Positions 5,832-61,463 of a DNA stretch of 64,000 nucleotides are shown here, piece after piece (the first letter of the stretch is position 1; each line of letters starts with the position of its first letter). A program made the translations under genes and the position numbers. The notes under the pieces were generated by a model. That model was not told where the DNA came from, made no database searches, and saw only the letters and a list, made by a program, of their open reading frames with translations. Source of the DNA: an uncultured bacterium (GTDB lineage Bacteria > Patescibacteriota > JABMPQ01 > CAVVCK01); contig CAVVCK010000001.1 in assembly GCA_963746775.1 (NCBI GenBank), positions 418,435 to 482,434 on the forward strand, in the 5' to 3' direction.

Positions 5832-6104
5832 TTATGAAAAAGAAATATGTAAATCCGTGCCAAGCGCCTTAGCAAGATGACGTAAAAAAGCTACTGTAGG
5901 ATTATAAGTACCTCTCTCTAAACGTGAAATAGCTGATTGTTTTGTGCCAATTTTTTTAGCCAATTCTGCCTGAGTATAGCCTTTTTCAATCCTTTTTTCT
6001 ATAATCATTTCAATTAATTCAAACTCTGGGCCTAATTCATTATAGGCTTTTTCTATTTTTCTATTTTTGAGTAATTGATCTTTTAATGTTTTATATGATT
6101 TCAT
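5832..6104 (-). CDS. higA: HigA-type antitoxin / XRE-family HTH transcriptional regulator
   Basis: HTH motif GYTQAELAKKIGTKQSAISRLERG. 90 aa. Sits immediately downstream of a decayed HigB/Gp49-like toxin ORF. Confidence 0.7.
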   Translation of the reverse strand: MKSYKTLKDQLLKNRKIEKAYNELGPEFELIEMIIEKRIEKGYTQAELAKKIGTKQSAISRLERGTYNPTVAFLRHLAKALGTDLHISFS

Positions 6105-15184: not shown

Positions 15185-16799
15185 TTATTTTGTATAATTC
15201 TTCCTAAATTTCTCCATAAAAGGAGTTGTCTCTCTCTTTGGCACTTTCATTTTCTTCAATCTTTTCTCAATTTCAGCCTGTGATAATTTAACATTCAATC
15301 TTCTTTTAGATATATTAATTTCAATCACATCACCATTTTTTATAATTCCAATTACTCCACTATTATATCCTTCAGGCTCAATGTGACCAATACAAGCTCC
15401 TCTAGTTCCACCGGAAAAACGGCCATCTGTAAGCAAAGCTACTTTGAGACCTGCACCAGAAATCACTGAGGTAGGTGTCAACATCTCCGGCATACCAGGA
15501 GCACCAGCCGGCCCCATAAAATTAACTACTACTACATCACCATTTTTAATATTTTTATTTTCTACCGCCTTCATTACTGCTTCTTCAGTATTGAATACCT
15601 TGGCTGGTCCGCTAAATTCTAGCATATCTTTCTCTACTGCTGTTTGTTTTATAACCGATGAATTGCAAATATTTCCTTTCAAAACGGCAATACCTCCTTC
15701 TTTGTAATAAGGATTATTCAATGGTCGAATTACATCATTATTTTTAATTTTACCCTTTTGAGCTATTTCTTTTATATTTTTTCCATTTACAGTCTCTGAT
15801 GATTTTAAATATTTTTTTAATCTATTTAAAACTGCTGGAATTCCTCCTGCCTTATCCAAATCTTCCATTACATGCTCACCTGCTGGTCTTATTTTACAAA
15901 TATTGAGCGTAGTTTTAGATATTTTATCAAATAATTCCAATGGCAAATCAATATTCATCTCATTTGCTATAGCAGGTAAATGTAGAGCGGTGTTAGTTGA
16001 CCCCCCAATAGCCATATCAACTCTGATTGCGTTTTCAAAAGCAGCTTTAGTCATAATCTTCCGGGGGTAAATATTTTTCTTTACTAACTGCACAATTTTC
16101 TTGCCGGTCTGATAAGCTTGTTTTTTCTTTTTAGGATCTAGGGCTAGAGTTGTGGCACAACCAGTCAGGGACATACCCAAAACTTCTGTCATACAAGCCA
16201 TAGAATTAGCAGTAAATAATCCTGCGCAAGAACCAGCCCCAGGACAAGCCCGGCATTCTATTTTATAGGCTTCTTTCAAATCCATTTTACCAGCCTTAAC
16301 TTTTCCAACAGCTTCAAAAGCGCCAGATACTAAATCTATGCCTTTCCCGTCAATGCTCCCTTCTTTCATTGCTCCGCCAGTAAGAATTATAGCTGGTAAA
16401 TTTAACCTGCCAGCTGCCATAAGCATACCCGGTGTAATTTTATCGCAATTAGTTACCCCCCACCCAACCGTCCAAAGAATGAGATAACATCATAATTTCT
16501 ATATTATCAGCAATATGATCACGAGAGGGCAGTGACAATCTCATTTCCACATGCATAGCGATACCGTCACACACACCCGGCACTCCCCATTCAAATGGCA
16601 CTCCTCCTCCATCTACAATCCCTCTTTTAACTTCCTTAGTTAATTCATTTAAATGAATATGGCCTGGAATTATATCGTTATAGGAATTGGCAATACCAAT
16701 AAAAGGTTTTTTGAAATCATTATCTCTTAAACCTGTGGCACGAAGTAAGGATCTATGAGGCATTGTTTCAATGCCCTTTTTTAGTTTTTCACTTCTCAT
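15185..16799 (-). CDS. ilvD: dihydroxy-acid dehydratase, split into two ORFs by a +1 frameshift in a C6 (G6 on the coding strand) homopolymer at 16455-16460
   Basis: ORF 16449-16799 encodes the IlvD N-terminus ([23 protein letters not shown]...GIAMHVEM...[10 protein letters not shown]). ORF 15185-16426 continues it ([13 protein letters not shown]...). Removing one G restores [21 protein letters not shown], the conserved [12 protein letters not shown] motif. Confidence 0.8.
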
Positions 16800-33420: not shown

Positions 33421-33657
33421 ATGGATACTCAAGACAAAACTAAATTCTTAAATCAACGTACAGACATTATAATATCATTATTAATCCACATATTAGAATC
33501 TAAGTCGAAAGAATTCAAAACTCTTAGAAGTAAAATCACCTTTCTCTACTCTTTTGGCCTCAAATCCAAAGAAATAGGACAAATATTAAATAAAAAAGAT
33601 AGTCATATTCGCAAAGAAATTGCTATCGTTCGTAAACTAAATAATAAAAATAACTAA
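33421..33657 (+). CDS. small HTH protein (sigma-70 region-4-like / LuxR-like), paralog 1 of 3
   Basis: 78 aa. Helix-turn-helix-like LYSFGLKSKEIGQILNKKDSHIRKEIAIV. Confidence 0.4.
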   Translation: MDTQDKTKFLNQRTDIIISLLIHILESKSKEFKTLRSKITFLYSFGLKSKEIGQILNKKDSHIRKEIAIVRKLNNKNN

Positions 33658-33663
33658 AATCAT

Positions 33664-33876
33664 ATGGAAACTGAAAAACTATTAGCAGACATATCCAACA
33701 AATTAAGTGTTTTAATTTCTATGTCTCTAGAAAGGGGAAATAAACAGGCAACAAATAAAGACAAAATTAAGTTTTTAAATAGATTTAGCCTTACAAATAA
33801 GCAAATAGCCGAAATCATTGGAACTTCTAAAAACTCAATAGAAGTAACGTTAAGTAAGTTAAAAAATAAATCTTAA
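33664..33876 (+). CDS. small HTH protein, paralog 2 of 3
   Basis: 70 aa. FLNRFSLTNKQIAEIIGTSKNSIEVTLSKL. Confidence 0.4.
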   Translation: METEKLLADISNKLSVLISMSLERGNKQATNKDKIKFLNRFSLTNKQIAEIIGTSKNSIEVTLSKLKNKS

Positions 33877-33887
33877 TATTAAAATAT

Positions 33888-34061
33888 ATGCCGAAAAAGG
33901 AAAATACAAATAGTTCAACAGAGCTCTTAGAACTGCTTCTTATAGTAGAATTACTGAAACTAGGAACTACTCAACTTGATATTCGTAAATTAATTGGTTG
34001 CGATATATATAAAATAAATAAACTAGCAAAATTAATAAAAAAAGGTAAGAAGAATAATTAA
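33888..34061 (+). CDS. small HTH protein, paralog 3 of 3 (57 aa, below ORF-track cutoff)
   Basis: Manual translation MPKKENTNSSTELLELLLIVELLKLGTTQLDIRKLIGCDIYKINKLAKLIKKGKKNN. Same L..xLG.....I....G architecture as its neighbours. Confidence 0.35.
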   Translation: MPKKENTNSSTELLELLLIVELLKLGTTQLDIRKLIGCDIYKINKLAKLIKKGKKNN

Positions 34062-34062
34062 A

Positions 34063-34758
34063 ATGAAAAAGCTAAATCAGGAAATAGTTGAAAAACTAGC
34101 AAATGAACTTAATATTTCAGAAAGAACAGTTAAAAAAAATATTTATAATTTAGTTAAAGATTACTCAGGACTAACAAAAAATGCAGTAGCCCAAATATAT
34201 GCAAGACAAAACGGTAAGACAGTCTTCCGAAAACTAGATAACGAAGATAAGGCAACACTACCCTCTATGGAAGTAATTCCTGAAAAAATTAAAATAAAAA
34301 GTATAAAAACTAGCAAAACAAAGAAACAAATTCTTTTTAATTACGAAACAGATGATTATTTTAAAAAGGAACACATAGATGAACTTCATAGAGCATATAA
34401 TAATAACTGTTACACAGCTGTCTTTATTTTAGCTCGTAAAATTATTGAAAATCTTATTATTGATATATTAAGAAAAAAATATCCTGAAAAAAAGAAAGAA
34501 AATAAAGAACTTTATTTTGATATAAATAAAAGACGTTTCAAAGATTTTGGTATTATACTCGACAATTTATATAAAAAAAGAAATGATTTTGGCACAGAAA
34601 ACAGAGCAGTTGAAAGATTATACACTCTGGCTAAAAAGTTAAAAGACAATTCAAATCATAAAACACATTCATGGTATCATCTTGTTAAACGTAAGATAGA
34701 AATAGAGGATCTAGATATTAATCAAATAATTAATATTATAAAAAAACTAGAAAAATAA
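34063..34758 (+). CDS. hypothetical protein with N-terminal HTH and uncharacterised C-terminal helical domain
   Basis: 231 aa. EKLANELNISERTVKKNIYNL HTH-like start. No catalytic motif recognised. Confidence 0.4.
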   Translation: MKKLNQEIVEKLANELNISERTVKKNIYNLVKDYSGLTKNAVAQIYARQNGKTVFRKLDNEDKATLPSMEVIPEKIKIKSIKTSKTKKQILFNYETDDYFKKEHIDELHRAYNNNCYTAVFILARKIIENLIIDILRKKYPEKKKENKELYFDINKRRFKDFGIILDNLYKKRNDFGTENRAVERLYTLAKKLKDNSNHKTHSWYHLVKRKIEIEDLDINQIINIIKKLEK

Positions 34759-34809
34759 CACTAGCAGTAAATTTAATTAAGTAAAACATAAAATTACCAA
34801 TCTATGTAC

Positions 34810-35080
34810 ACATTTAAATTTAACTGCTGCCACATGAACGGCAGTCAATATTAATTAACATTACAACATGTTAATAGAAAAATTGACTGTTGCACGTCTG
34901 TGAAGTATTAATATCTTTAACCGAGGATTTATAAGACCTGGCTTAAATTACAGTTAATATATTAGCTTACACGGAGTAGGAAGAAAAAAGTTTCTTCTGA
35001 TAGATGCGCACTCATTTGTAAACTAACCAGGTATTAGTAAATGAACACGTAATTCCGTGTGGCAGCAATTAGATCTAAGA
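34810..35080. other. structured noncoding segment with nested inverted repeats, bounded by an imperfect ~15-bp inverted repeat (AACTGCTGCCACATG / CGTGTGGCAGCAATT)
   Basis: Read from the sequence:
- CTGCCACATGAACGGCAG hairpin.
- CAGTCAAT...ATTGACTG.
- TTAACAT-TACAAC-ATGTTAA.
- The terminal inverted copies lie about 235 bp apart. Confidence 0.4.
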
Positions 35081-35105
35081 TTAATAATATTTAATTTATA
35101 TTACT

Positions 35106-35315
35106 ATGAATATTGTCGGTTATATATTAATTATCTTCGGAGGATTTTGGATCTTAAGCCGCCTATTAAACCAGCCCGTTATGTTTCGTTTAGTACGAGA
35201 TCAAATACAAGCTGGCGGATTTTTATATGGTATTTGGTGTTATATTAGAGGAGAAATATTCGGACTTGGACTAGGTATGTCACTAATAATATTAGGTATT
35301 TATCTTATAAAGTAG
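35106..35315 (+). CDS. small membrane protein (2 TM, 69 aa)
   Basis: Two hydrophobic helices. Preferred over the overlapping ORF 35057-35248 because of its clean TM architecture. Confidence 0.35.
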   Translation: MNIVGYILIIFGGFWILSRLLNQPVMFRLVRDQIQAGGFLYGIWCYIRGEIFGLGLGMSLIILGIYLIK

Positions 35316-35378
35316 ATTAGATTTGATAGCTACAAATATTCATCTATAGCGAAATAAATTATTTTTTAACCAAAAAAT

Positions 35379-35582
35379 ATGATTAATTTATCAGACTTAC
35401 CAAAAACATTATTTTCTCCGTTTAAAACACTCTTCATTGGTTATATTTTACTTATCGCTATCGGTAAAATTACTATTGCAGGATTCTGGGAATTTTTTGG
35501 AATTTCTATTATTATTATAATTTTTGAAATTTTTCACAATGATTTTCTTAGAATAATACTCAATAAACAAGCAAATAAGTAA
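35379..35582 (+). CDS. small membrane protein (2 TM, 67 aa)
   Basis: Hydrophobic helices LFIGYILLIAIGKITIAGFW and ISIIIIIFEIF. Confidence 0.35.
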   Translation: MINLSDLPKTLFSPFKTLFIGYILLIAIGKITIAGFWEFFGISIIIIIFEIFHNDFLRIILNKQANK

Positions 35583-35594
35583 AAATAAATATTC

Positions 35595-35626
35595 CGATCG
35601 CTACAGATATTAATCTGTAGCGATCG
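35595..35626. promoter_or_regulatory. perfect 14-bp-stem palindrome CGATCGCTACAGAT-ATTA-ATCTGTAGCGATCG; half-site ATCTATAGCGA also at ~35342
   Basis: Seen directly. Lies between the small membrane protein genes and could be an operator or a terminator hairpin. Confidence 0.45.
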
Positions 35627-35646
35627 TTAATAATTAAAACAAAAAA

Positions 35647-36030
35647 ATGCCCGAAAAAAAGAAAAAAACAATCCTAAATACCCTTCTCTGGGGATTTTTA
35701 CTCTGGTTATTCGGCTACATCCTAGGAATAATCTTCTTTGCTTTCATTCCCGAAAATCTCCTGGGTTGGGTTATTGCCCCCTTCGGCTGGCTAGTTACAA
35801 TTTTAATTTTATTCAAAAAGGTCAAAAGAGATTCTCTTGGTTGTTACCTAGTCGTCGGTATAATCTGGACAATAATAGCTATAATTTTAGATTATGCCTT
35901 TATAGTCAAACTCTTTGGCTCAAATAATTATTATAAACTTGATGTCTATTTCTATTATTTCTCTACTATAATATTGCCAGTAGCAATTGGTTGGTACAAG
36001 CTTAAGAAAGATAAAAATATTGCAAAATAG
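35647..36030 (+). CDS. membrane protein (4 TM, 127 aa)
   Basis: Four hydrophobic segments. Lys-rich N-terminus. Confidence 0.4.
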   Translation: MPEKKKKTILNTLLWGFLLWLFGYILGIIFFAFIPENLLGWVIAPFGWLVTILILFKKVKRDSLGCYLVVGIIWTIIAIILDYAFIVKLFGSNNYYKLDVYFYYFSTIILPVAIGWYKLKKDKNIAK

Positions 36031-38646: not shown

Positions 38647-39201
38647 TTATATATCTCTTTCAGGATCAATTGCTACTTTCATTTTGTCCTTAGGATCAAT
38701 TTTAATAGCAAGCATATTGCCCGGTTGGAATTTAGGAACATCAAGTCTACCGATAATAGTTTTTATTTCTGTCTGATAAGGAGAGTTGCTACCATCATAG
38801 ACCTCTAATTTTAAAGAAACAAAAGGTTGATTATTAATAGTTACTACTCCTCGTCCACTTTCTCCCAATTCGATAATTTTAGCCTTAGCTAAACGACCAT
38901 TAGCTAAAATTTTTTTTCTATCATTGCTGTTGGTAACATATTTAAATAAACTCCTAAAAGAAAATGCAGTAATAACAACGGTTAACAAAGAAATAAGAGT
39001 AATAATAATTATATTACTGGAAGAATCTTCTGTTTCTTCTGTAGTCATATTTTCAACATTACTATTTTGTTCAGAAGATAAAGAAAAGTCTGAATTATTC
39101 TGGTCTTGAGAACTGCCAGAATTAAAATAAAACACAAATAACAAAATACCTCCCGTAATAATTAAATCTGCTATAATAAACCAGATTAATTTTTTATTCA
39201 T
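38647..39201 (-). CDS. DUF3592-like membrane-anchored protein (1 TM + beta domain)
   Basis: TM helix, then GRLAKAKIIELGESGRGVVTINNQPFVSLKLEVYDGSNSPYQTEIKTIIGRLDVPKFQPGNMLAIKIDP. The same module is duplicated in the neighbouring gene. Confidence 0.4.
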   Translation of the reverse strand: MNKKLIWFIIADLIITGGILLFVFYFNSGSSQDQNNSDFSLSSEQNSNVENMTTEETEDSSSNIIIITLISLLTVVITAFSFRSLFKYVTNSNDRKKILANGRLAKAKIIELGESGRGVVTINNQPFVSLKLEVYDGSNSPYQTEIKTIIGRLDVPKFQPGNMLAIKIDPKDKMKVAIDPERDI

Positions 39202-39219
39202 TTTTTTTATAATAATTTA

Positions 39220-40329
39220 TTATTTTTTTATTTTTATTTTCTTTAAAATCTCTTTACTAGAATCAAAAACAATTTTCAACTTATTATTTGGATCAATTTT
39301 AACACAAAATTTTTTACCAGGCTGAAATTTTGGTAAATCTAATCTCCTAATAATAGTCTCCAGTTCTGTTTTATATTTTTCTGCCCCATCATCAACCTCC
39401 ATTTCCAATGCTACTAAGGGTTGTCCATTAATAGTAACTATTCCTTCAGCACTTTCTTTAATGTTTAATATAGTAGCTAAGGCAGGCTTGCCTGTTTTTA
39501 AAATTCGCTTATCATCCTTCCCTAAAAACAGATGCTTAAATAATCCCTTAAAAGAACTAAACATGCTAGTAATTAAAGCCGTAATGGCAAAAATTGCTAT
39601 TATACTTCCATAAACATCTTTATTGAATGGAATTGCCTCAGGATAATAATTTTCTAAAGCTACGAGAATACCTAAAATTGGCAATATAAACCATATATAA
39701 AATAATTTTTTAGCTTTTTTGTTTTTTGTTTGGGAATTATTTGAACTGGCAATACTGTTTTTAGATGGATTAATGGAAAAACTCGTTTGATCTATAACCA
39801 CTTCATTTGGATCATTAGGACTGATTCTAACCTTTAAATACTTTCCTTCTTGAAATTGAGGTACATACAATCTTGAAATTATAGTCTTTAAATCAACTTG
39901 GTATGGCTTTTTATTACCATCATAAATTTCTAAAGTTAGAGAAACAAAAGGTTGATCATTAACTGTAACTACTGATTCATCATTTTCGTTTAGTTTAATT
40001 ATTTTAGCACGAGCTAATCTACCTTCTTTTAAAATTTTATCGTTCTTCCCACTATTCTTAAAACTTGATATTACATCTGAAAACATATAGCCTGTAAAAA
40101 ATAAAGTTCCAATAATTATTACAGCAGAAAAAACATAAACTATCCCATCATGACTTAAGGGAATAATATTGGGATCTACTTCATCTTCAATATAAATTAG
40201 AAAAATTAAAATACCAGACAAAATAAAAACCATTATCATATAAAAGAAAAATATTGTCCATTTTTTTATTTTAATCATTTTGTTGTTTGTTTTATATTTT
40301 TTTACTTTTATAATTCTAAATTTATACAC
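39220..40329 (-). CDS. DUF3592-like membrane protein with two tandem TM + beta-domain modules
   Basis: Two repeats of (TM)-GRLARAKII...VTVNDQPFVSLTLEIYDG...PQFQEGK...V.I.PND, paralogous to 38647-39201. Confidence 0.4.
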   Translation of the reverse strand: MYKFRIIKVKKYKTNNKMIKIKKWTIFFFYMIMVFILSGILIFLIYIEDEVDPNIIPLSHDGIVYVFSAVIIIGTLFFTGYMFSDVISSFKNSGKNDKILKEGRLARAKIIKLNENDESVVTVNDQPFVSLTLEIYDGNKKPYQVDLKTIISRLYVPQFQEGKYLKVRISPNDPNEVVIDQTSFSINPSKNSIASSNNSQTKNKKAKKLFYIWFILPILGILVALENYYPEAIPFNKDVYGSIIAIFAITALITSMFSSFKGLFKHLFLGKDDKRILKTGKPALATILNIKESAEGIVTINGQPLVALEMEVDDGAEKYKTELETIIRRLDLPKFQPGKKFCVKIDPNNKLKIVFDSSKEILKKIKIKK

Positions 40330-40549: not shown

Positions 40550-42217
40550 TTAATCTACTACTCTTCTAACTTCATCCAAGTCAGTAACTCCCTCAATAAT
40601 TTTTAAAAGTCCATCTTGTTCCATAGTCATCATACCTTGTTCAACAGCGGCATGAAATATATCCTGAGAAGATGCCCTCTGATTAATTAAAGCTTCTATT
40701 TTTTCATCAACTTGAAATATTTCATAGATGCCCATTCGACCAGAGTAACCTGTTTCATGGCAATCATGGCATCCCTTCTCCTTGGCTTTGTATATTTCTT
40801 TTAAGCCTTCTTGGGGATAAAATTTACCTAGTTTATTTTTTAATTCTTCAATTAATTTTTCTTCTGGCTTATATGATTCTCTACATTTTTTACATAATTT
40901 TCTAACTAATCTCTGGCCTATTACCACAGATAAAGCTGGTCCTATAGTATAAGGCCTAACTCCCATATTTACCAAACGCGGAATAGCCCCGGCAGCATCA
41001 TTAGTATGTAGGGTTGAAAATACTATATGCCCAGTTAGAGCTGCTTGAGCAGCAATATCAGCTGTCTCATAATCACGAATTTCACCTACCATTATTATAT
41101 CTGGGTCTTGCCTTAGAATAGACCGTAAACCGTTGGCAAAAGTCATATCTTTTTCCTCATCAATTTGTGTCTGCACTATTCCCTCAAGTCTATATTCTAT
41201 AGGATTTTCTAGGGTTATAATTTTAATTTCTGAAGATTTAACTTCATTTAAACAAGAGTATAGAGTAGTGGTTTTACCAGAACCAGTAGGACCTGTAGTT
41301 AAAATCAATCCTGTAGGTTTAGCTATTTCTTTTTTTAATAGTTTTAATTCTCTCTCTCTGAATCCTAAGTCATCTAACTTTAATTTCATCGCCCCTACCC
41401 CCAAAAGACGCATTACTATTGATTCACCATATCCAGAAGGTAGAACTGAAACCCTAATATCTATTTCAAGATCACCTGAAGTTATAGTAAATCTGCCATC
41501 TTGCGGAATATCGGATACATTTAACTTTAATCTTGCTAAATATTTGATTCTAGATAATATTTTTGGATAAGCTTCCTGGGCAATCTTAGTTATTTCTTGC
41601 AAAACACCGTCAATACGATAACGCAAAACAATATCTTCTTCTGCTGGCTCAACATGTATATCTGAAGAATTAGTTAAAAGCGCCCCAGCAAAAATAATAT
41701 CAATAACTTCTGTAGTTGATACTTTTCTAATTAAAGATCTTAAATCAGATACATTTTTTACCATTTTTCTAGCTTCTTCAAGCTCCTTTTCGCTTATTTC
41801 AACTTTCTCGATAGTTTTTTTAGAAACTAATACCTGACTATAAAAATTATAAGCATATTTAAAACTGACTTCGGATATTAGAAAAATGGTAATTTCATAT
41901 TTTTTTTCTTTTAAATCTACTATAACCTTTTCTGCTTTTTTATTATTAACATCGACTATACCAATTTTGAGAATATTATCTTTTTCATAAAAAGGTATAA
42001 TTTTAGCCAATATAGCATCTTTTTTGGAAACCAAAAGCAGAGCCTCTTTATCAATAGGAAAGCCTTTTAAATTAATATAAGGTATCCCTAGTGTCTGGGA
42101 TTTTTCAATAGTCAGTCTTTCTAGAGCATCTTCATTTAAATTGGTTAACTTTTCTTTTAATCTTTTTTCTCTTTCTTCTTCTAATTCTTCATTGGTAACT
42201 ATTTTTGTTTTTACCAT
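40550..42217 (-). CDS. pilB: type IV pilus / type II secretion assembly ATPase (GspE/PilB family)
   Basis: Walker A ILTTGPTGSGKTTT. Asp/His boxes VGEIRD...TGHIVFSTLHTNDAAGAI. C-terminal tetracysteine CKKC...CHDCHETG. Confidence 0.85.
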   Translation of the reverse strand: MVKTKIVTNEELEEEREKRLKEKLTNLNEDALERLTIEKSQTLGIPYINLKGFPIDKEALLLVSKKDAILAKIIPFYEKDNILKIGIVDVNNKKAEKVIVDLKEKKYEITIFLISEVSFKYAYNFYSQVLVSKKTIEKVEISEKELEEARKMVKNVSDLRSLIRKVSTTEVIDIIFAGALLTNSSDIHVEPAEEDIVLRYRIDGVLQEITKIAQEAYPKILSRIKYLARLKLNVSDIPQDGRFTITSGDLEIDIRVSVLPSGYGESIVMRLLGVGAMKLKLDDLGFRERELKLLKKEIAKPTGLILTTGPTGSGKTTTLYSCLNEVKSSEIKIITLENPIEYRLEGIVQTQIDEEKDMTFANGLRSILRQDPDIIMVGEIRDYETADIAAQAALTGHIVFSTLHTNDAAGAIPRLVNMGVRPYTIGPALSVVIGQRLVRKLCKKCRESYKPEEKLIEELKNKLGKFYPQEGLKEIYKAKEKGCHDCHETGYSGRMGIYEIFQVDEKIEALINQRASSQDIFHAAVEQGMMTMEQDGLLKIIEGVTDLDEVRRVVD

Positions 42218-42240: not shown

Positions 42241-42435
42241 TTATTCTTCTATGCTAATGCATTGTACTGGACAAGAATCTGCTGCCTGTTTATTACAGCC
42301 CAATTCTTCTACTTCAGTTTTTTTTGGATAAGCCTTGCCATTATCTTTCATTTCCCAATTGGAAGGACATAGGCTAACGCAAGTACCACAGCCTATGCAT
42401 TTTTCCATATCTTGTTTTATTTTATATTTCGCCAT
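42241..42435 (-). CDS. 4Fe-4S ferredoxin
   Basis: CIGCGTCVSLCP and CNKQAADSCPVQC cysteine clusters. 64 aa. Confidence 0.75.
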   Translation of the reverse strand: MAKYKIKQDMEKCIGCGTCVSLCPSNWEMKDNGKAYPKKTEVEELGCNKQAADSCPVQCISIEE

Positions 42436-42528: not shown

Positions 42529-43662
42529 CTATGATATTTTTGTTTTTATTTTTTCAAACACAAGCTGCTCTACTTCGAATAGTGTTTTATCTTTAAAACT
42601 AATATGTATTAAATCATTTTGAGCAGAAACATTAAAACGCTTTGATAAAATCTCCAAATTTGATTTCTTTAAAGTTTTAATTAATCCACTTATTTCATTT
42701 TCTTTTTCATACAAAATAATAATGATTTCGGCTTCGGTTATAGAAGCTGCTAACTCATCTTCTATACCCACTAAATCTTTTTCACTAGAATTAGTTTTTT
42801 TAAAATCATCACGAGTTATTAATGTCCAAACAATTTTATAATCATTATCAAATTTTATTCTGGCTAATGCCCTTCCCCATAGCTTTAAACTATCTAAAGA
42901 TTTATTTTTATACAGGCTTTGAATAATTTTTTGTTGATCAGCCCCTAGTGATATTAATTCAGAAGCCAGGTTAAATGCTTGAGGAGTAGTATTAGCTGCC
43001 TGAAAGCTTCTGGTTGAAAATATGATACTAGATAAAATGCAGGTAGCAATCTTAGAATCTATAGCATTTTTATCAAAAAACTCCAAAAATGGATACAAAA
43101 CTTCTGCCGTAGATGAAGCCTTTAAATCAACAATATTAACTTCCCCAAAGAGTTCATTAGCTGACTGATTATCAATATTAATAATAGGAGTTTCATAAAA
43201 AAGTTCGGTATTTTGATTATACACAGTTCCTATTGATTCTAAATCCAAGCTACCTATGCAAATTATTAAATCATATTGCGAACCAACTTTCTTGGTAGTA
43301 ATATGTTTTGAATCATAATCACCATTTTTAGGAGTGATGTAGATATTTAATTTATTACCATCATTATCAAAATCATAGCTGAATTGACCAATTTTTGTTT
43401 CGGAAGTATCCAGCGTAATTACAAAATTTTTATTATTCTTTAAATTATCTCTTACCTTGTCAAAATAAGGTAAAAATGAAAAAGCGGGATCTAATTTTCC
43501 ATTTGCCACCATATCAACTTCCTTATCTATTTTTTCCAAAGCAATTCCTAGGGCTAAAAGACTACCAATAGAATCAGCTTCTGGATTTTCTTTAGTTACT
43601 AATAAAATTTTTTTACTTTTTTGGATTAATTCAAATCCTTGCTGTTTTGGAGATAATTCCAT
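42529..43662 (-). CDS. DHH-family phosphoesterase-like protein (NrnA-like) with substituted catalytic motifs
   Basis: Motif I region PEADSIGS. Motif II LDTSE. Motif III reads IDNQ instead of DHH. Confidence 0.5.
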   Translation of the reverse strand: MELSPKQQGFELIQKSKKILLVTKENPEADSIGSLLALGIALEKIDKEVDMVANGKLDPAFSFLPYFDKVRDNLKNNKNFVITLDTSETKIGQFSYDFDNDGNKLNIYITPKNGDYDSKHITTKKVGSQYDLIICIGSLDLESIGTVYNQNTELFYETPIINIDNQSANELFGEVNIVDLKASSTAEVLYPFLEFFDKNAIDSKIATCILSSIIFSTRSFQAANTTPQAFNLASELISLGADQQKIIQSLYKNKSLDSLKLWGRALARIKFDNDYKIVWTLITRDDFKKTNSSEKDLVGIEDELAASITEAEIIIILYEKENEISGLIKTLKKSNLEILSKRFNVSAQNDLIHISFKDKTLFEVEQLVFEKIKTKIS

Positions 43663-43744
43663 GTAATTTGTTTAAGCTATAACCTACAGTATTTTTAAAC
43701 TGAATATTGTATTTTATATTAACCAAAAAAGTGTGTCAACATAG

Positions 43745-43847
43745 ATCACGTACGAAATTCCGTGGTTATTAAAAAAATTATATAAGTTAATAAGTATTTA
43801 TTTACCCCAAAAAACATTTCTTTTAACTTTAGAATTTCGTACGTGAT
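43745..43847. promoter_or_regulatory. pair of perfectly inverted 16-bp sites ATCACGTACGAAATTC / GAATTTCGTACGTGAT flanking a 71-bp AT-rich spacer; third copy (ACTTTCGTACGTAGT) at 44475-44489
   Basis: Exact inverted repeat read from the sequence. Motif WTTTCGTACGTRRT occurs three times in about 750 bp, upstream of tsaE and trxA. Confidence 0.5.
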
Positions 43848-43922
43848 GGATAAAATATAGTTTTGTGTTAATATAATATTAAGAAAAATGTAGCTTTTAT
43901 ATTTTCAATATATTTAATTATT

Positions 43923-44417
43923 TTGGTAATTTTTTTAAATACTTTATATTTTTATAGACAAATGAACTTAAAAATCTTATCTAAAGACAGAAAACAAACT
44001 CAAAATATTGCTATAAATTTAGCTAAAAGTTTGGATTACGGCTTAACTATAGCCTTCGAAGGTAATTTAGGCTCAGGTAAAACTACCTTTATCCAAGGAT
44101 TGGCTCTTGGTTTGAATATTAAGGAAAAAATATCAAGCCCAACTTTTGTAATTTTTAAAAAATACAAGGTTTTAAATCATAAAAAAATAAATTGGCTTTA
44201 TCATTTTGATTTATACAGAATTAAAAATATTGAAGAAATAATTGATTTAGATTTTGAAGAAATTATCAGTGATAGAAATTCAGTCGTAGCTATTGAATGG
44301 GCCGAAAAAATTCATAAATTACTACCGAAAAATACTTTAAAAATAAAGATAACCCATGTAAATAAAAACTCTAGAAAAATTATTTTTAGTGAACAGCATA
44401 CAAAAAAATATCTCTAG
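43923..44417 (+). CDS. tsaE: tRNA threonylcarbamoyladenosine biosynthesis ATPase TsaE
   Basis: P-loop AFEGNLGSGKTTFIQGL, SPTFVIFKKY, HFDLYR. The likely true start is MNLKILSK at 43962. Confidence 0.8.
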   Translation: MVIFLNTLYFYRQMNLKILSKDRKQTQNIAINLAKSLDYGLTIAFEGNLGSGKTTFIQGLALGLNIKEKISSPTFVIFKKYKVLNHKKINWLYHFDLYRIKNIEEIIDLDFEEIISDRNSVVAIEWAEKIHKLLPKNTLKIKITHVNKNSRKIIFSEQHTKKYL

Positions 44418-44563
44418 TAGATAGTTTGAACCATCTAATAGAATAAATATCTTAAATCTCTAATTATGTTAAAAACTTTCGTACGTAGTAAATAAATATA
44501 CGTTTGACCATAATTATTTAGTAAATTATAATAAAATAATATTATAATAATTAATTCAAAATT

Positions 44564-44890
44564 ATGTCTATTGTAAAATTGTCCGGTGAAAATTTTCAAG
44601 AAGAAGTTATGAATTCTGATTTACCAGTCCTAGTAGATTTCTACGCAGAATGGTGTGGTCCATGTAAAATGATTTCTCCTATTATCGATGAAATAGCCGA
44701 ATCTTATAGCGGAAAAATTAAAGTAGGAAAATTAGATATAGATCAAGCTCAAGATATCGCTTCAAGCCAAGGTGTTATGAGTATTCCCACTCTAATATTC
44801 TTTAAAAATGGACAAAAAGTAGAAGAGAATACGGGCGCCCTAGATAAGGGACAATTAGAAGAATTAATTCAAAAAGTAATTGAAGCATAG
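44564..44890 (+). CDS. trxA: thioredoxin
   Basis: WCGPCK active site. 108 aa. Confidence 0.9.
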   Translation: MSIVKLSGENFQEEVMNSDLPVLVDFYAEWCGPCKMISPIIDEIAESYSGKIKVGKLDIDQAQDIASSQGVMSIPTLIFFKNGQKVEENTGALDKGQLEELIQKVIEA

Positions 44891-44940
44891 CTTGATTTGA
44901 AATATTATAACTCAAAAAATAAAAATAAATTAAAAATATT

Positions 44941-45387
44941 ATGTCTGATTATTATACACTCATTCCAAATTTTAAAGATGAAATTAATGCTTTCTTAAAT
45001 CAATCAAAAAATATTGCTTTTATTGGAATTAATAAAGATCCTAAATCACTCAGTTATAAGATATTTGAAAATTTAAAAAATGATTTAAATGTACTACCGA
45101 TTAGTGAAGAAATAGAAATTTTAAATAAAAAGTGTTATGCCAATCTTTCCGAAATTAAATGTAAATTAGATGCAGCTATAATAGTAACAACTACCCAAAA
45201 AACACTTAAAGCCTGCCAGGAATGTTTTGAAAATAAAATTTTAAATGTCTGGATAGAAATTGGTAGTGAAAGTAAGGAGGCACTTGATTATTGTAAAGAT
45301 AAAAATATGAATGTTGTTTATTTACACTCTATCTTAAAAGAAAGAATAAATCCTTCTTCGAAGTATAAATCCAAAAAAGAAAGTTAA
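44941..45387 (+). CDS. CoA-binding domain protein (YccU-like)
   Basis: NIAFIGINKDPKSLSYKIF...AAIIVTTTQ...VWIEIGSES pattern. 148 aa. Confidence 0.5.
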   Translation: MSDYYTLIPNFKDEINAFLNQSKNIAFIGINKDPKSLSYKIFENLKNDLNVLPISEEIEILNKKCYANLSEIKCKLDAAIIVTTTQKTLKACQECFENKILNVWIEIGSESKEALDYCKDKNMNVVYLHSILKERINPSSKYKSKKES

Positions 45388-45399
45388 ATTAACAATTTA

Positions 45400-46107
45400 A
45401 TGACATTTTTAACCGTTATTTGGTATATAATTATTGCCCTAATCCCTGGGATATTTTGGATTTGGTTTTATCGAAGAAAAGATAAAAATCCTGAACCTAG
45501 AAAATTAATTATAAAGATATTTTTAGCTGGTATGGCTATAACCTTGCCAGCTATAGTTTTTGAATATGCCGCTGAATTTTTTTTCCCTTTTATTGATGCG
45601 GAAAATCTCTTAACTATTATTTTTGCTTCTTTATTTATAGTAGCTCCAATAGAAGAATATTTAAAATATTACGTAGTAAAAAAAGTAGCCTTTAAAAATA
45701 AAGCTTTTGATGAACCAATAGATGGGATAATCTATGGTGTAGTGGCTGGTTTGGGCTTTGCTTCTTTGGAAAATTTAATAGTAATATCAGCTGAAGGTCA
45801 GGGTATAATTGTCCTGCGCTTTGCCACCGCCACCCTAATGCATGCCATTACTACTGGTATGGTTGGCTACTACTTAAGCATAAATAAATTTTCTACTCAA
45901 GATGATAAAAAGAAAAATCCTATTTGGAAAGGTCTTATAATAGCAATTGCTATACATGGTATTTATAATTCTATTGTCTCTACTCAAACTATTCTAACTT
46001 TGTTTATTTTAATTGCCTTTTTAATTAGCATGTATATAATACTAGCATTTAGAATAAAAAAATTAAAAGATATGGATCATTTTTCAAAAAAAGTTACCAT
46101 TGCTTAA
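45400..46107 (+). CDS. PrsW-family intramembrane metalloprotease
   Basis: Polytopic. EEYLK (EExxK), ATATLMHAITTG (FxxxH-like), AIAIHGIYN (HxxxN). Confidence 0.6.
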   Translation: MTFLTVIWYIIIALIPGIFWIWFYRRKDKNPEPRKLIIKIFLAGMAITLPAIVFEYAAEFFFPFIDAENLLTIIFASLFIVAPIEEYLKYYVVKKVAFKNKAFDEPIDGIIYGVVAGLGFASLENLIVISAEGQGIIVLRFATATLMHAITTGMVGYYLSINKFSTQDDKKKNPIWKGLIIAIAIHGIYNSIVSTQTILTLFILIAFLISMYIILAFRIKKLKDMDHFSKKVTIA

Positions 46108-46159
46108 AATTAATTTTATTTTATAATAAAAGTATTAACTATCTATAATTTTAAAAAAT

Positions 46160-46642
46160 ATGTCAGAAAAAAACAAAAAATCTTTTTTTAGTAAATTACT
46201 TAAAAATAAAAATACTGAGGAAAAATTAGAAGATACTCAGTTTAATAATACTAAAAATATTCAAACAAAAACTAAACAAGATCAAGAAGAATGGGCAGCA
46301 GATTATGAGGGACAATTGACTATTGATGTTTATCAAACAGATGAAGATATTATCATTAAGTCTACTATTGCTGGAGTAACTCCAGAAGATATCGATATTA
46401 CTATCGATAATGATATGGTTATCATAAAAGGTGAAAGAAAAAATTGTACTACTGCCCGCGAAGAAGATTATTATTATCAAGAATGTTATTGGGGATCTTT
46501 TTCAAGATCAGTAATTCTACCTTGCGATATTGAAGCAGATAAAATACAAGCAGAATTAAAAAATGGCATCCTAACTGTTACACTACCAAAAGCACATAAA
46601 TCAAAATCAAAAAAAATATCTGTTAAATCCCTAGAAGAATAA
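46160..46642 (+). CDS. Hsp20/alpha-crystallin family small heat-shock protein
   Basis: Alpha-crystallin domain LTIDVYQTDEDIIIKSTIAGV...GSFSRSVILPCDIEADKIQAELKNGILTVTLPK. Confidence 0.8.
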   Translation: MSEKNKKSFFSKLLKNKNTEEKLEDTQFNNTKNIQTKTKQDQEEWAADYEGQLTIDVYQTDEDIIIKSTIAGVTPEDIDITIDNDMVIIKGERKNCTTAREEDYYYQECYWGSFSRSVILPCDIEADKIQAELKNGILTVTLPKAHKSKSKKISVKSLEE

Positions 46643-53144: not shown

Positions 53145-53240
53145 ATTTATCCAATATAATTATTCTAAAAATCTTTATAATATTATCACATAAAAACAAA
53201 AAAACCAACCCTCAGGCTGGCTTATTTTAAAGCTCATTAT

Positions 53241-53355
53241 GTTGGCGACGACCTACTTTCTCCTACCATAATAGTAGGGTAGCATCGGCGCTGGTAAGTT
53301 TTACTTCTGAGTTCGAGATGAGATCAGGTAGTTCCTTACCGCAAGAGCCACCAAC
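53241..53355 (-). rRNA. rrf: 5S ribosomal RNA
   Basis: Reverse complement GTTGGTGGCTCTTGCGGTAAGGAACTACCTGATCTCATCTCGAACTCAGAAGTAAAAC...CAGCGCCGATGCTACCC matches the 5S consensus. Flanked by the processing stem GCTCATTATGTTGG / CCAACATAATGAGC. Confidence 0.85.
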
Positions 53356-53479
53356 ATAATGAGCTCTAATTATCTTTAACAATTATAAAACGCTAGCCAA
53401 TTAGTACGTTGAAATGTTGAAAATGTTGGAATCAAAATGATTTCAACGGTTTCAACGATTACAACGAATTTTAATACTA

Positions 53480-56305
<2,826 letters not shown>

Positions 56306-60717: not shown

Positions 60718-61347
60718 TTACATATATAAATTCCCCTTATTATTCCTGTCCCTCTGCCATTTGATGGGATTATTAATAATATACCTTCTGATATTATTTA
60801 AGGCAAATTCATTGCGAATAATATGGTCATAAAAACGCGGTTGCCATAATGGTATGCCCGGTGTATTTTGTAATTCATTTATCCTGCGCGCCGTAAATGT
60901 TTTAAATCCACGTATTATTTCGGACAATGAATAATATTTTGTATGTTGTTTATTGATTTGATTATGTTTGATGCGTTGATTGATATTCGTAGAGACAGGT
61001 TTGAAACCTATCTCTACGGGCGTACCATTCACGCCATACATATTATTAACATCATCACATTTTACACCCTTTATCCCATTATCAATAAATATCACCCCAT
61101 GAACATGATTGGGCATCACAATAAATTTATCCAAAACACAATTTGGATAATGATTGGGCAAATCAAACCAACATTTTTCAACAATTTGTGTTTGTTTTAT
61201 ATTGGATAATTTACCATTTATAATTTTACCAAAAAAATGTTGCTTATTTTTGGTGCAAATGGTAATAAAATACGCTCCGTCCGATGAATAATCATAATTG
61301 GGAAGACGCGTGGATTCTATTCGATATTTATTTTTAAATAAGGTCAT
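60718..61347 (-). mobile_element. REP-associated tyrosine transposase (RAYT, IS200/IS605-like Y1 HUH transposase)
   Basis: HUH motif MPNHVHGVIF and catalytic Tyr region WQPRFYDHIIRNEFALNNIRRYIINNP. Flanked by REP hairpins. Confidence 0.8.
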
Positions 61348-61359
61348 TATATATTTAAA

Positions 61360-61453
61360 GGCAGGTTTGACCCTGCCCCTCCTTCAAATTTTGTTGTACA
61401 GACAGGTTTTAAACCTGTCTTCTCGATTAGACAGGTTTTAAACCTGTCTGTAC
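61360..61453. repeat. REP-like palindromes adjacent to RAYT: GGCAGGTTTGACCCTGCC and two copies of GACAGGTTTTAAACCTGTC arranged as a larger palindrome
   Basis: Inverted repeats at 61360-61377, 61398-61420 and 61429-61453. A related palindrome, AGAGACAGGTTTGAAACCTATCTCT, lies inside the RAYT ORF at 60988-61018. Confidence 0.75.
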
Positions 61454-61463
61454 TACCTAAAAA

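Follow-up and report, generated by a model that had tools for sequence, protein, structure and literature searches.

In the Bacillus prophage SPbeta, the master repressor MrpR (YopR) binds a 15-bp element named SPBRE, of which there are copies in about ten promoter regions (PMC10516654). One short element, many promoters and one repressor: such an arrangement is the closest described concept for a set of phage palindromes discussed below. On a small scale, the same concept fits three copies of a short motif that we analysed in a 64-kb stretch of genomic DNA (hereafter, the window) from an uncultured bacterium, the likeness being one of concept. Besides, SPBRE is confined to a prophage, whereas the window sites lie in promoters of host housekeeping and stress genes, and no MrpR-like gene, i.e., one encoding a tyrosine-recombinase fold, was seen in the window.

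Marboxes, the sites of MarA/SoxS/Rob, are asymmetric and orientation-dependent, vary in position from just upstream of the -35 box to overlap with it, and put several stress genes under one regulator. The window sites share with them the importance of orientation and the variable place near -35. However, there is no sequence relationship, the window showed no AraC-family gene, and the palindromic core of the window motif suggests a dimer rather than a monomer when set against the marbox. Thiol-stress regulons offer another parallel: they control trxA through Spx in Bacillus and through SigR/SigH in actinomycetes, with the Spx-responsive element lying at about -44. Herein, the likeness consists in the targeting of trxA along with protein-quality-control genes and in the position of the element, while the motif is a different one and no Spx-like or ECF-type architecture was detected at the window sites. 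Finally, a short AT-rich segment bounded by perfect inverted repeats, as found between two of the three copies, resembles a MITE.

The source genome belongs to Patescibacteria (CPR), has about 30% GC and carries arrays of PF18895 pilin genes; the closest named relatives of the window are Parcubacteria. To our knowledge, next to nothing is known of how Patescibacteria (CPR) regulate their genes.

Three copies of a 10-mer beside adjacent promoters

The core common to all three sites is the 10-mer TTTCGTACGT. Site 1 (43745-43760) reads GAATTTCGTACGTGAT on the minus strand and ATCACGTACGAAATTC on the plus strand, with the core at 43757-43748. Site 2 (43832-43847, core at 43835-43844) carries GAATTTCGTACGTGAT on the plus strand, and site 3 (44475-44489, core at 44477-44486), also on the plus strand, reads ACTTTCGTACGTAGT. 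Sites 1 and 2 form a perfect 16-bp inverted pair, whose arms do not extend past 16 bp, around an AT-rich spacer of 71 bp (43761-43831) without a strong promoter. All three sequences with their coordinates, as well as the inverted pair and its spacer, had been described in an earlier reading made by a model from the letters alone (the sequence-only reading), and we found each of them in the sequence exactly as given. Site 3 is identical to the 16-mer at 13 of 16 positions and, once the comparison is lengthened downstream, to site 2 at 16 of 20. Centre to centre, sites 1 and 2 are 87 bp apart, which corresponds to ~8.3 helical turns and would place them out of phase for the DNA looping that the sequence-only reading had also envisaged.

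The three exact copies of TTTCGTACGT in the 64-kb window all lie inside 750 bp, against an expectation of 0.07 copies from dinucleotide shuffles; not a single one out of 100 shuffled windows reached three copies. When one or two mismatches were allowed, no extra copies above chance appeared in the window, and the sole further CGTACG in the 64 kb is situated within tRNA-Leu. Accounting for the look-elsewhere effect, a cluster of any 10-mer having at least four G+C and at least three copies in 1 kb arises in 3-6% of Markov-simulated windows. The real window contains two such clusters, namely the three-site motif and the hairpins of an IS200-like element. Checked for frequency and positional bias, as had been advised with the first description, the motif proved strongly over-represented and positionally biased within the 64-kb window, i.e., ~10% of the genome, to which all of these statistics refer. 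In the Logan contig L006, an independent assembly from the same organism, the motif region has 100% identity to the window; thus, the motif is not an assembly artefact. The motif is a real, lineage-specific cis element, and statistically this is solid.

Each copy stands beside a promoter; the promoters are consensus predictions, and their transcription starts are inferred. Site 1 lies upstream of a predicted promoter on the minus strand (43711-43739, TTGACA-17-TAAAAT, 11/12), with 8 bp from the end of the site to the -35 box TTGACA. The first gene downstream of the site encodes a DHH-family phosphoesterase (NrnA-like; 42529-43662), followed by genes for a ferredoxin (42241-42435) and a T2SSE/PilB-like ATPase (40550-42217), all on the minus strand. 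Site 3 precedes the predicted trxA promoter on the plus strand (44504-44532, TTGACC-17-TATAAT, 11/12) and stops 17 bp short of its -35 box TTGACC. Downstream of this promoter, trxA and the genes for a CoA-binding protein, a PrsW-family protease and Hsp20 follow one another closely (44564-46642, plus strand), probably as one stress-type unit. Site 2 precedes tsaE, the gene for a t6A biosynthesis ATPase (43962-44417, plus strand), ancestrally bacA-tsaE. Its promoter region (43828-43877, plus strand) holds two candidates. If the -10 box is TATAAT at 43872-43877, which is conserved in the relative L005, the motif falls at about -49 to -40; if the promoter is TTTAGA-17-TAAAAT at 43828-43856 (9/12), the motif falls inside its spacer.

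The distance to the -35 box therefore differs by site, being 8 bp for site 1, about 4 bp for site 2 and 17 bp for site 3. The polarity does not: in all three copies, TTTCGTACGT reads toward its own downstream gene (the DHH gene, tsaE and trxA, respectively). The sites lie roughly at -40 to -62 from the inferred transcription starts, on the upstream edges of the promoters. Both hexamer regions of the DHH promoter are conserved in five species, and GTTTGACC together with the -10 box of the trxA promoter is conserved in the relatives L002, L007 and L008; the hexamer regions of these two promoters are kept across relatives, while their flanks are not. Such conservation of the -35 and -10 boxes across species supports the DHH and trxA promoters as real. 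Rfam covariance models gave no match in the region 43000-45200 at E-values up to 1. The sequence-only reading had assigned the copies to the promoter regions of tsaE and trxA. This stands for the two copies on the plus strand, but the left copy, on the minus strand, belongs to the divergent DHH-gene promoter and not to that of tsaE.

Among the ideas put forward in the sequence-only reading, a transcription-factor motif fits best, considering the promoter positions, the common polarity and the placement of the sites upstream of the core promoters. Our main reading, to which we would assign a probability of about 0.6, is that the three sites are candidate binding sites of a putative DNA-binding protein co-regulating three adjacent transcription units. 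TTTCGTACGT would then be a recently gained cis-regulatory word bound by a putative sequence-specific protein, and one factor could co-regulate the DHH-ferredoxin-ATPase unit, tsaE and the trxA-CoA-binding-PrsW-Hsp20 unit. Because the core CGTACG is itself palindromic, a single site could hold one small dimer. As to the sign of regulation, our guess is repression or modulation via the contact region of the RNA polymerase alpha subunit, since the core promoters are already near consensus. Protein binding, the co-regulation of the three units and its sign are all what we infer from the arrangement of the sites.

Origin of the motif in one lineage

Four relatives, whose DHH proteins are 88, 82, 78 and 67% identical to that of the window, were compared across the locus; a scan of a genome collection with the DHH protein added only one 45%-identical relative, which lacks the motif. 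At the three orthologous positions of L002, L004/L005, L007 and L008, CGTACG is never found, and AT-rich sequence stands there without any indel. At site 2, L005 has AAATTTTATACATAGT where the window has GAATTTCGTACGTGAT, the two differing by six transitions and no transversions; for TTTTATACATAGT in place of the window's TTTCGTACGTGAT, the difference is 6 transitions and 0 transversions. Between the equivalents of sites 1 and 2, 74 bp are alignable in L005 versus 71 bp in the window. As compared with these relatives, only the window genome has a G+C-containing word common to the three promoter regions.

By parsimony, the motif is a lineage-specific gain by substitution in otherwise unconstrained AT-rich DNA. 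Three convergent gains of one CpG-containing 10-mer in 27%-GC DNA argue for selection, and selection for a binding site explains the pattern more readily than drift does. Phylogenetic footprinting does not back the binding-site reading, as the motif is missing from the orthologous regions of all four relatives. For the same reason, the comparison of orthologous intergenic regions, proposed with the first description, speaks against a simple conserved regulon.

In the relatives, the gene order is DHH, divergently followed by bacA-tsaE-trxA-CoA-binding-PrsW-Hsp20. The undecaprenyl-diphosphatase gene bacA sits between the DHH gene and tsaE in five out of five related loci and is deleted in the window, where its remnant, starting with ATG TAG, is left at 43889-43961 on the plus strand.

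The same word in uncultivated phages

Our first viral scan looked for an inverted pair of the 10-mer with a gap of 40-70 bp, the window's own gap being 77 bp. It returned two low-GC contigs with 24 and 30 copies, which surfaced by copy density and not by matching architecture. In seven uncultivated phage contigs from IMG/VR, TTTCGTACGT serves as one arm of a palindrome of 23 bp, TTTCGTACGT-N3-ACGTACGAAA, whose three central nucleotides vary. Contigs of this uncultivated phage family are L145, L146 and L148-L153 (e.g., IMGVR_UViG_3300037400_002876 and IMGVR_UViG_3300032038_001072). If each arm may deviate by one base, 68 such palindromes are counted. A sigma-70-like promoter scoring at least 9/12 accompanies 64 of them on one side, and in 52 of these 64 only 5-6 bp separate the palindrome from the start of the -35 hexamer. 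For five further palindromes, the -35 box starts 14-16 bp after, about one helical turn more. Many of the palindromes inspected come after a terminator-like hairpin, and this succession of terminator, palindrome, -35 and -10 implies that almost every small, early-type gene in these regions is a unit of its own. Three control 10-mers, scanned in the viral collection in the same way, gave no iterated family.

The contigs belong to real phages; their gene products include the large subunit of a terminase, a sigma-factor-like protein and a deoxyribonucleotidase. The terminase is a distant relative, at 34-42% identity, of its counterparts in Geobacillus virus E3, SPbeta-like, Enterococcus and Brevibacillus phages. 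The host is probably Firmicutes-like. The terminase family is very abundant in metagenomes, on more than 2,600 contigs of up to about 120-145 kb that come without host names. None of the phages in GenBank carries the palindrome, and the conserved early proteins of these phages gave no match in Pfam.

The arm of the phage palindrome is identical, 10/10, to all three window sites, and at sites 1 and 2 the match extends over the arm plus a GAT loop (13/13). In the window and in the phages alike, the word is situated directly upstream of sigma-70-type -35 boxes in apparently untranscribed DNA. Nevertheless, the window has single arms, the would-be second arm matching at only 2, 4 and 4 of 10 positions, whereas the phages have the full 23-bp palindrome. 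The distances to -35 differ as well (8, about 4 and 17 bp from a single arm versus mostly 5-6 bp from the palindrome end), and so does the copy number, with three copies in the window against dozens in the phages. No phage genes are found near the window sites, and no homologues of the phage-locus ORFs in the window.

Judging by its placement, TTTCGTACGT seems to behave in the phages as a promoter-proximal, operator-like element. The same word in the same kind of promoter position, operator-like in phages, strengthens the protein-binding reading of the window sites. With CGTACG palindromic in itself, a single arm might take up one dimer, and the phage palindrome two. Still, the match between window and phages could be a coincidence, and a shared word is not proof of a shared factor.

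It is tempting to suppose that nothing but point mutations has placed three CPR promoters under an operator word of phage type, even if we consider this possibility rather improbable. Were it true, a regulator akin to the one controlling dozens of phage early promoters would read TTTCGTACGT and control trxA, tsaE and the DHH unit together; it might come from a resident prophage, be the product of a domesticated phage gene, or be a host factor that phages exploit. The locus would then represent a datable birth of a mini-regulon in a reduced genome and a link between the regulation of CPR hosts and phages. If, instead, the phage link is coincidental, the window motif is an ordinary putative operator. 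The phage palindrome with its fixed -35 distance may matter more than the window sites, being a testable operator-regulator system and a probe for the protein that reads the word.

Competing explanations, a putative regulator and other features of the window

The perfect 16-bp inverted repeats around an AT-rich 71-bp segment had led the sequence-only reading to suggest the terminal inverted repeats of a ~100-bp MITE (103 bp by coordinates), and the same pair might also be taken for a recombination site. The comparison with relatives decides against the former: they keep homologous sequence of similar length (74 versus 71 bp), nothing has been inserted, and the MITE is thereby refuted. The flanks (...CATAG before the left arm and GGATA... 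after the right one) contain no direct repeat, i.e., no target-site duplication, and within the window the 16-mer with up to three mismatches occurs only at the two arms. Nor does the 103-bp unit, whose recurrence had been suggested as a check, recur in the window, in the viral scan or among the metagenome matches listed. A metagenome scan with the 16-mer gave at least 120 loci (L010-L129), and a viral scan gave three single matches and no pair; no contig with two copies was seen in the latter or among the metagenome matches listed. We thus give the MITE virtually no credence. Were the copies recombination sites, inverted pairs 1+2 or 1+3 would invert the DNA between them, and sites 2 and 3, direct repeats bracketing tsaE, would excise that gene. 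For an inverton, the 71-bp spacer is very short and has no promoter-like site wholly within it, both neighbouring promoters lying outside the pair. Moreover, gene order and orientation are as in the relatives, the second assembly shows the same, single orientation, and the sites have no neighbouring recombinase gene; the window's sole transposase is of IS200/Y1 type (60718-61347), and its hairpins are unrelated. This leaves recombination sites a very improbable explanation.

Two further possibilities retain the promoter position of the copies and dispense with a dedicated regulator. The motif might be a non-functional by-product of mutation, in which a template switch across the quasi-palindromic region of the divergent promoters made a perfect inverted partner of a chance copy and short-tract conversion made the third. 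The perfect pair does sit in a region of extended dyad similarity between divergent promoters, the orthologous arms in L005 are already similar, the site 2 differences are all transitions, and the motif is not conserved in relatives. However, 640 bp lie between the pair and the third copy, which is a direct repeat without the flanking identity that conversion needs, while a third exact 10-mer by chance is expected at less than 0.07 in the whole window. That all three copies occupy the same place relative to promoters, and that phages carry this word as an operator arm of functional appearance, also speaks against a by-product, which we consider unlikely. Alternatively, the transcription machinery itself might read the motif, either as a promoter element of an alternative or ECF-type sigma factor or as a lineage-specific UP-like element. 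ECF sigma factors typically recognise -10 elements with a CGT, which the motif contains; PrsW is the protease that triggers sigma-W activation in Bacillus, and a PrsW is encoded in the trxA unit; in addition, the motif falls between -40 and -60, a stretch of DNA touched by the alpha subunits of RNA polymerase. Against this, the sites share no AAC-type -35 element at a spacing of 16-17 bp before CGTA (the nearest AAC stands 10, 10 and 3 bp away), good sigma-70-type promoters stand directly downstream, and UP elements are AT-rich rather than CpG-rich. Reading by the polymerase is, in our opinion, quite unlikely.

We thus return to candidate binding sites of a co-regulating protein. As a kind of thing, the motif is ordinary, a new, putative operator word; two features raise it above routine, namely a recent origin visible in four relatives and the exact match to an arm of the phage palindrome. 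With the ancestral state visible in these relatives, it offers a clean, testable example of recent regulatory rewiring, and it would link thioredoxin and chaperone genes, tRNA t6A modification and a nanoRNase-like gene.

Several other candidates for the role of the motif were tried and rejected. A replication terminus is unlikely given the monotonic cumulative GC skew, and so is a restriction-site effect, CGTACG not being avoided in the window. The 16-mer is not a palindrome, and no TGTTTCACGTGAAACA-like match with up to three mismatches, as would suit a parS/ParB site, occurs in the window. CCCCA in the spacer, which resembles a heat-shock-sigma -10 element, was considered by eye and discarded.

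Elsewhere, the exact 16-mer GAATTTCGTACGTGAT is embedded in a repeated AT-rich element (...tcggatGAATTTCGTACGTGATggaattgtagatagtttaatgg...) on contigs Ga03075xx and Ga03254xx. Among the metagenome matches listed, about 85 belong to this highly repeated AT-rich family, which looks eukaryotic, and the occurrence of the 16-mer there is probably a coincidence. The other matches listed are single copies in unrelated contigs, most of them of higher GC. A literature search for the motif string returned only primers.

No DNA-binding gene is adjacent to the sites. An XRE-type gene is found at 5832-6104 of the window, and three small HTH-like ORFs with a 231-aa protein form an HTH cassette at 33421-34758 (plus strand). 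The block 33421-36030 is missing from the syntenic interval of L002, the one relative that covers it. We rejected the cassette as the regulator, as the motif is present in none of seven homologous loci fetched (L134-L140). A 7-mer, ACGTGAT, which also occurs in the cassette's own promoter, has five copies versus two expected, which is not significant.

The HTH cassette is conserved and apparently mobile, with three or four small ORFs (57-87 aa) before a protein of ~235 aa that belongs to no Pfam family. About 190 homologues of this large protein, 45-67% identical, are distributed over several phyla, always after 3-4 small ORFs. Named homologues include those from Parcubacteria-group MAGs and from records labelled Planctomycetota, Chryseolinea and Hodarchaeota. 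The neighbourhoods of the cassette are unrelated to one another; in the one that four of the loci represent, an MmeI-type restriction enzyme and a HigB toxin are encoded close by. Adjoining the cassette in the window is a non-coding stretch of 340 bp (34760-35100) with locally higher GC and several hairpins (e.g., CTGCCACATGAACGGCAG), for which Rfam gave no match.

Finally, we would like to comment on some other features of the window. At 60718-61460 (minus strand), two hairpins in tandem, AGACAGGTTTAAAACCTGTCT, stand before a transposase-like gene of IS200/Y1 type (209 aa), and a third copy of the hairpin arm lies inside the gene; the whole looks like an element of REP/RAYT or IS200 type. Two adjacent membrane proteins of 184 and 369 aa (38647-40329, minus strand) have in common a repeated domain of ~90 aa (...GRLAKAKIIELGES...VTINNQPFVSLKLEVYDG...), which occurs twice in the 369-aa protein, has weaker matches in relatives and no significant match in Pfam. 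The 23S and 5S rRNA genes (53240-56299, minus strand) have no 16S gene in the 7.7 kb upstream, i.e., the rRNA arrangement is unlinked; the next gene is deoxyhypusine-synthase-like. The dihydroxy-acid dehydratase gene ilvD (15185-16799, minus strand) is split by a frameshift or a stop into two ORFs of 116 and 413 aa and sits among branched-chain amino-acid genes (ilvB/N, ilvC, ilvD and ilvE-like). Genes for prephenate dehydratase/dehydrogenase and for LeuA-domain proteins are also present in the window, and such branched-chain amino-acid and related genes are unusual in a CPR genome.
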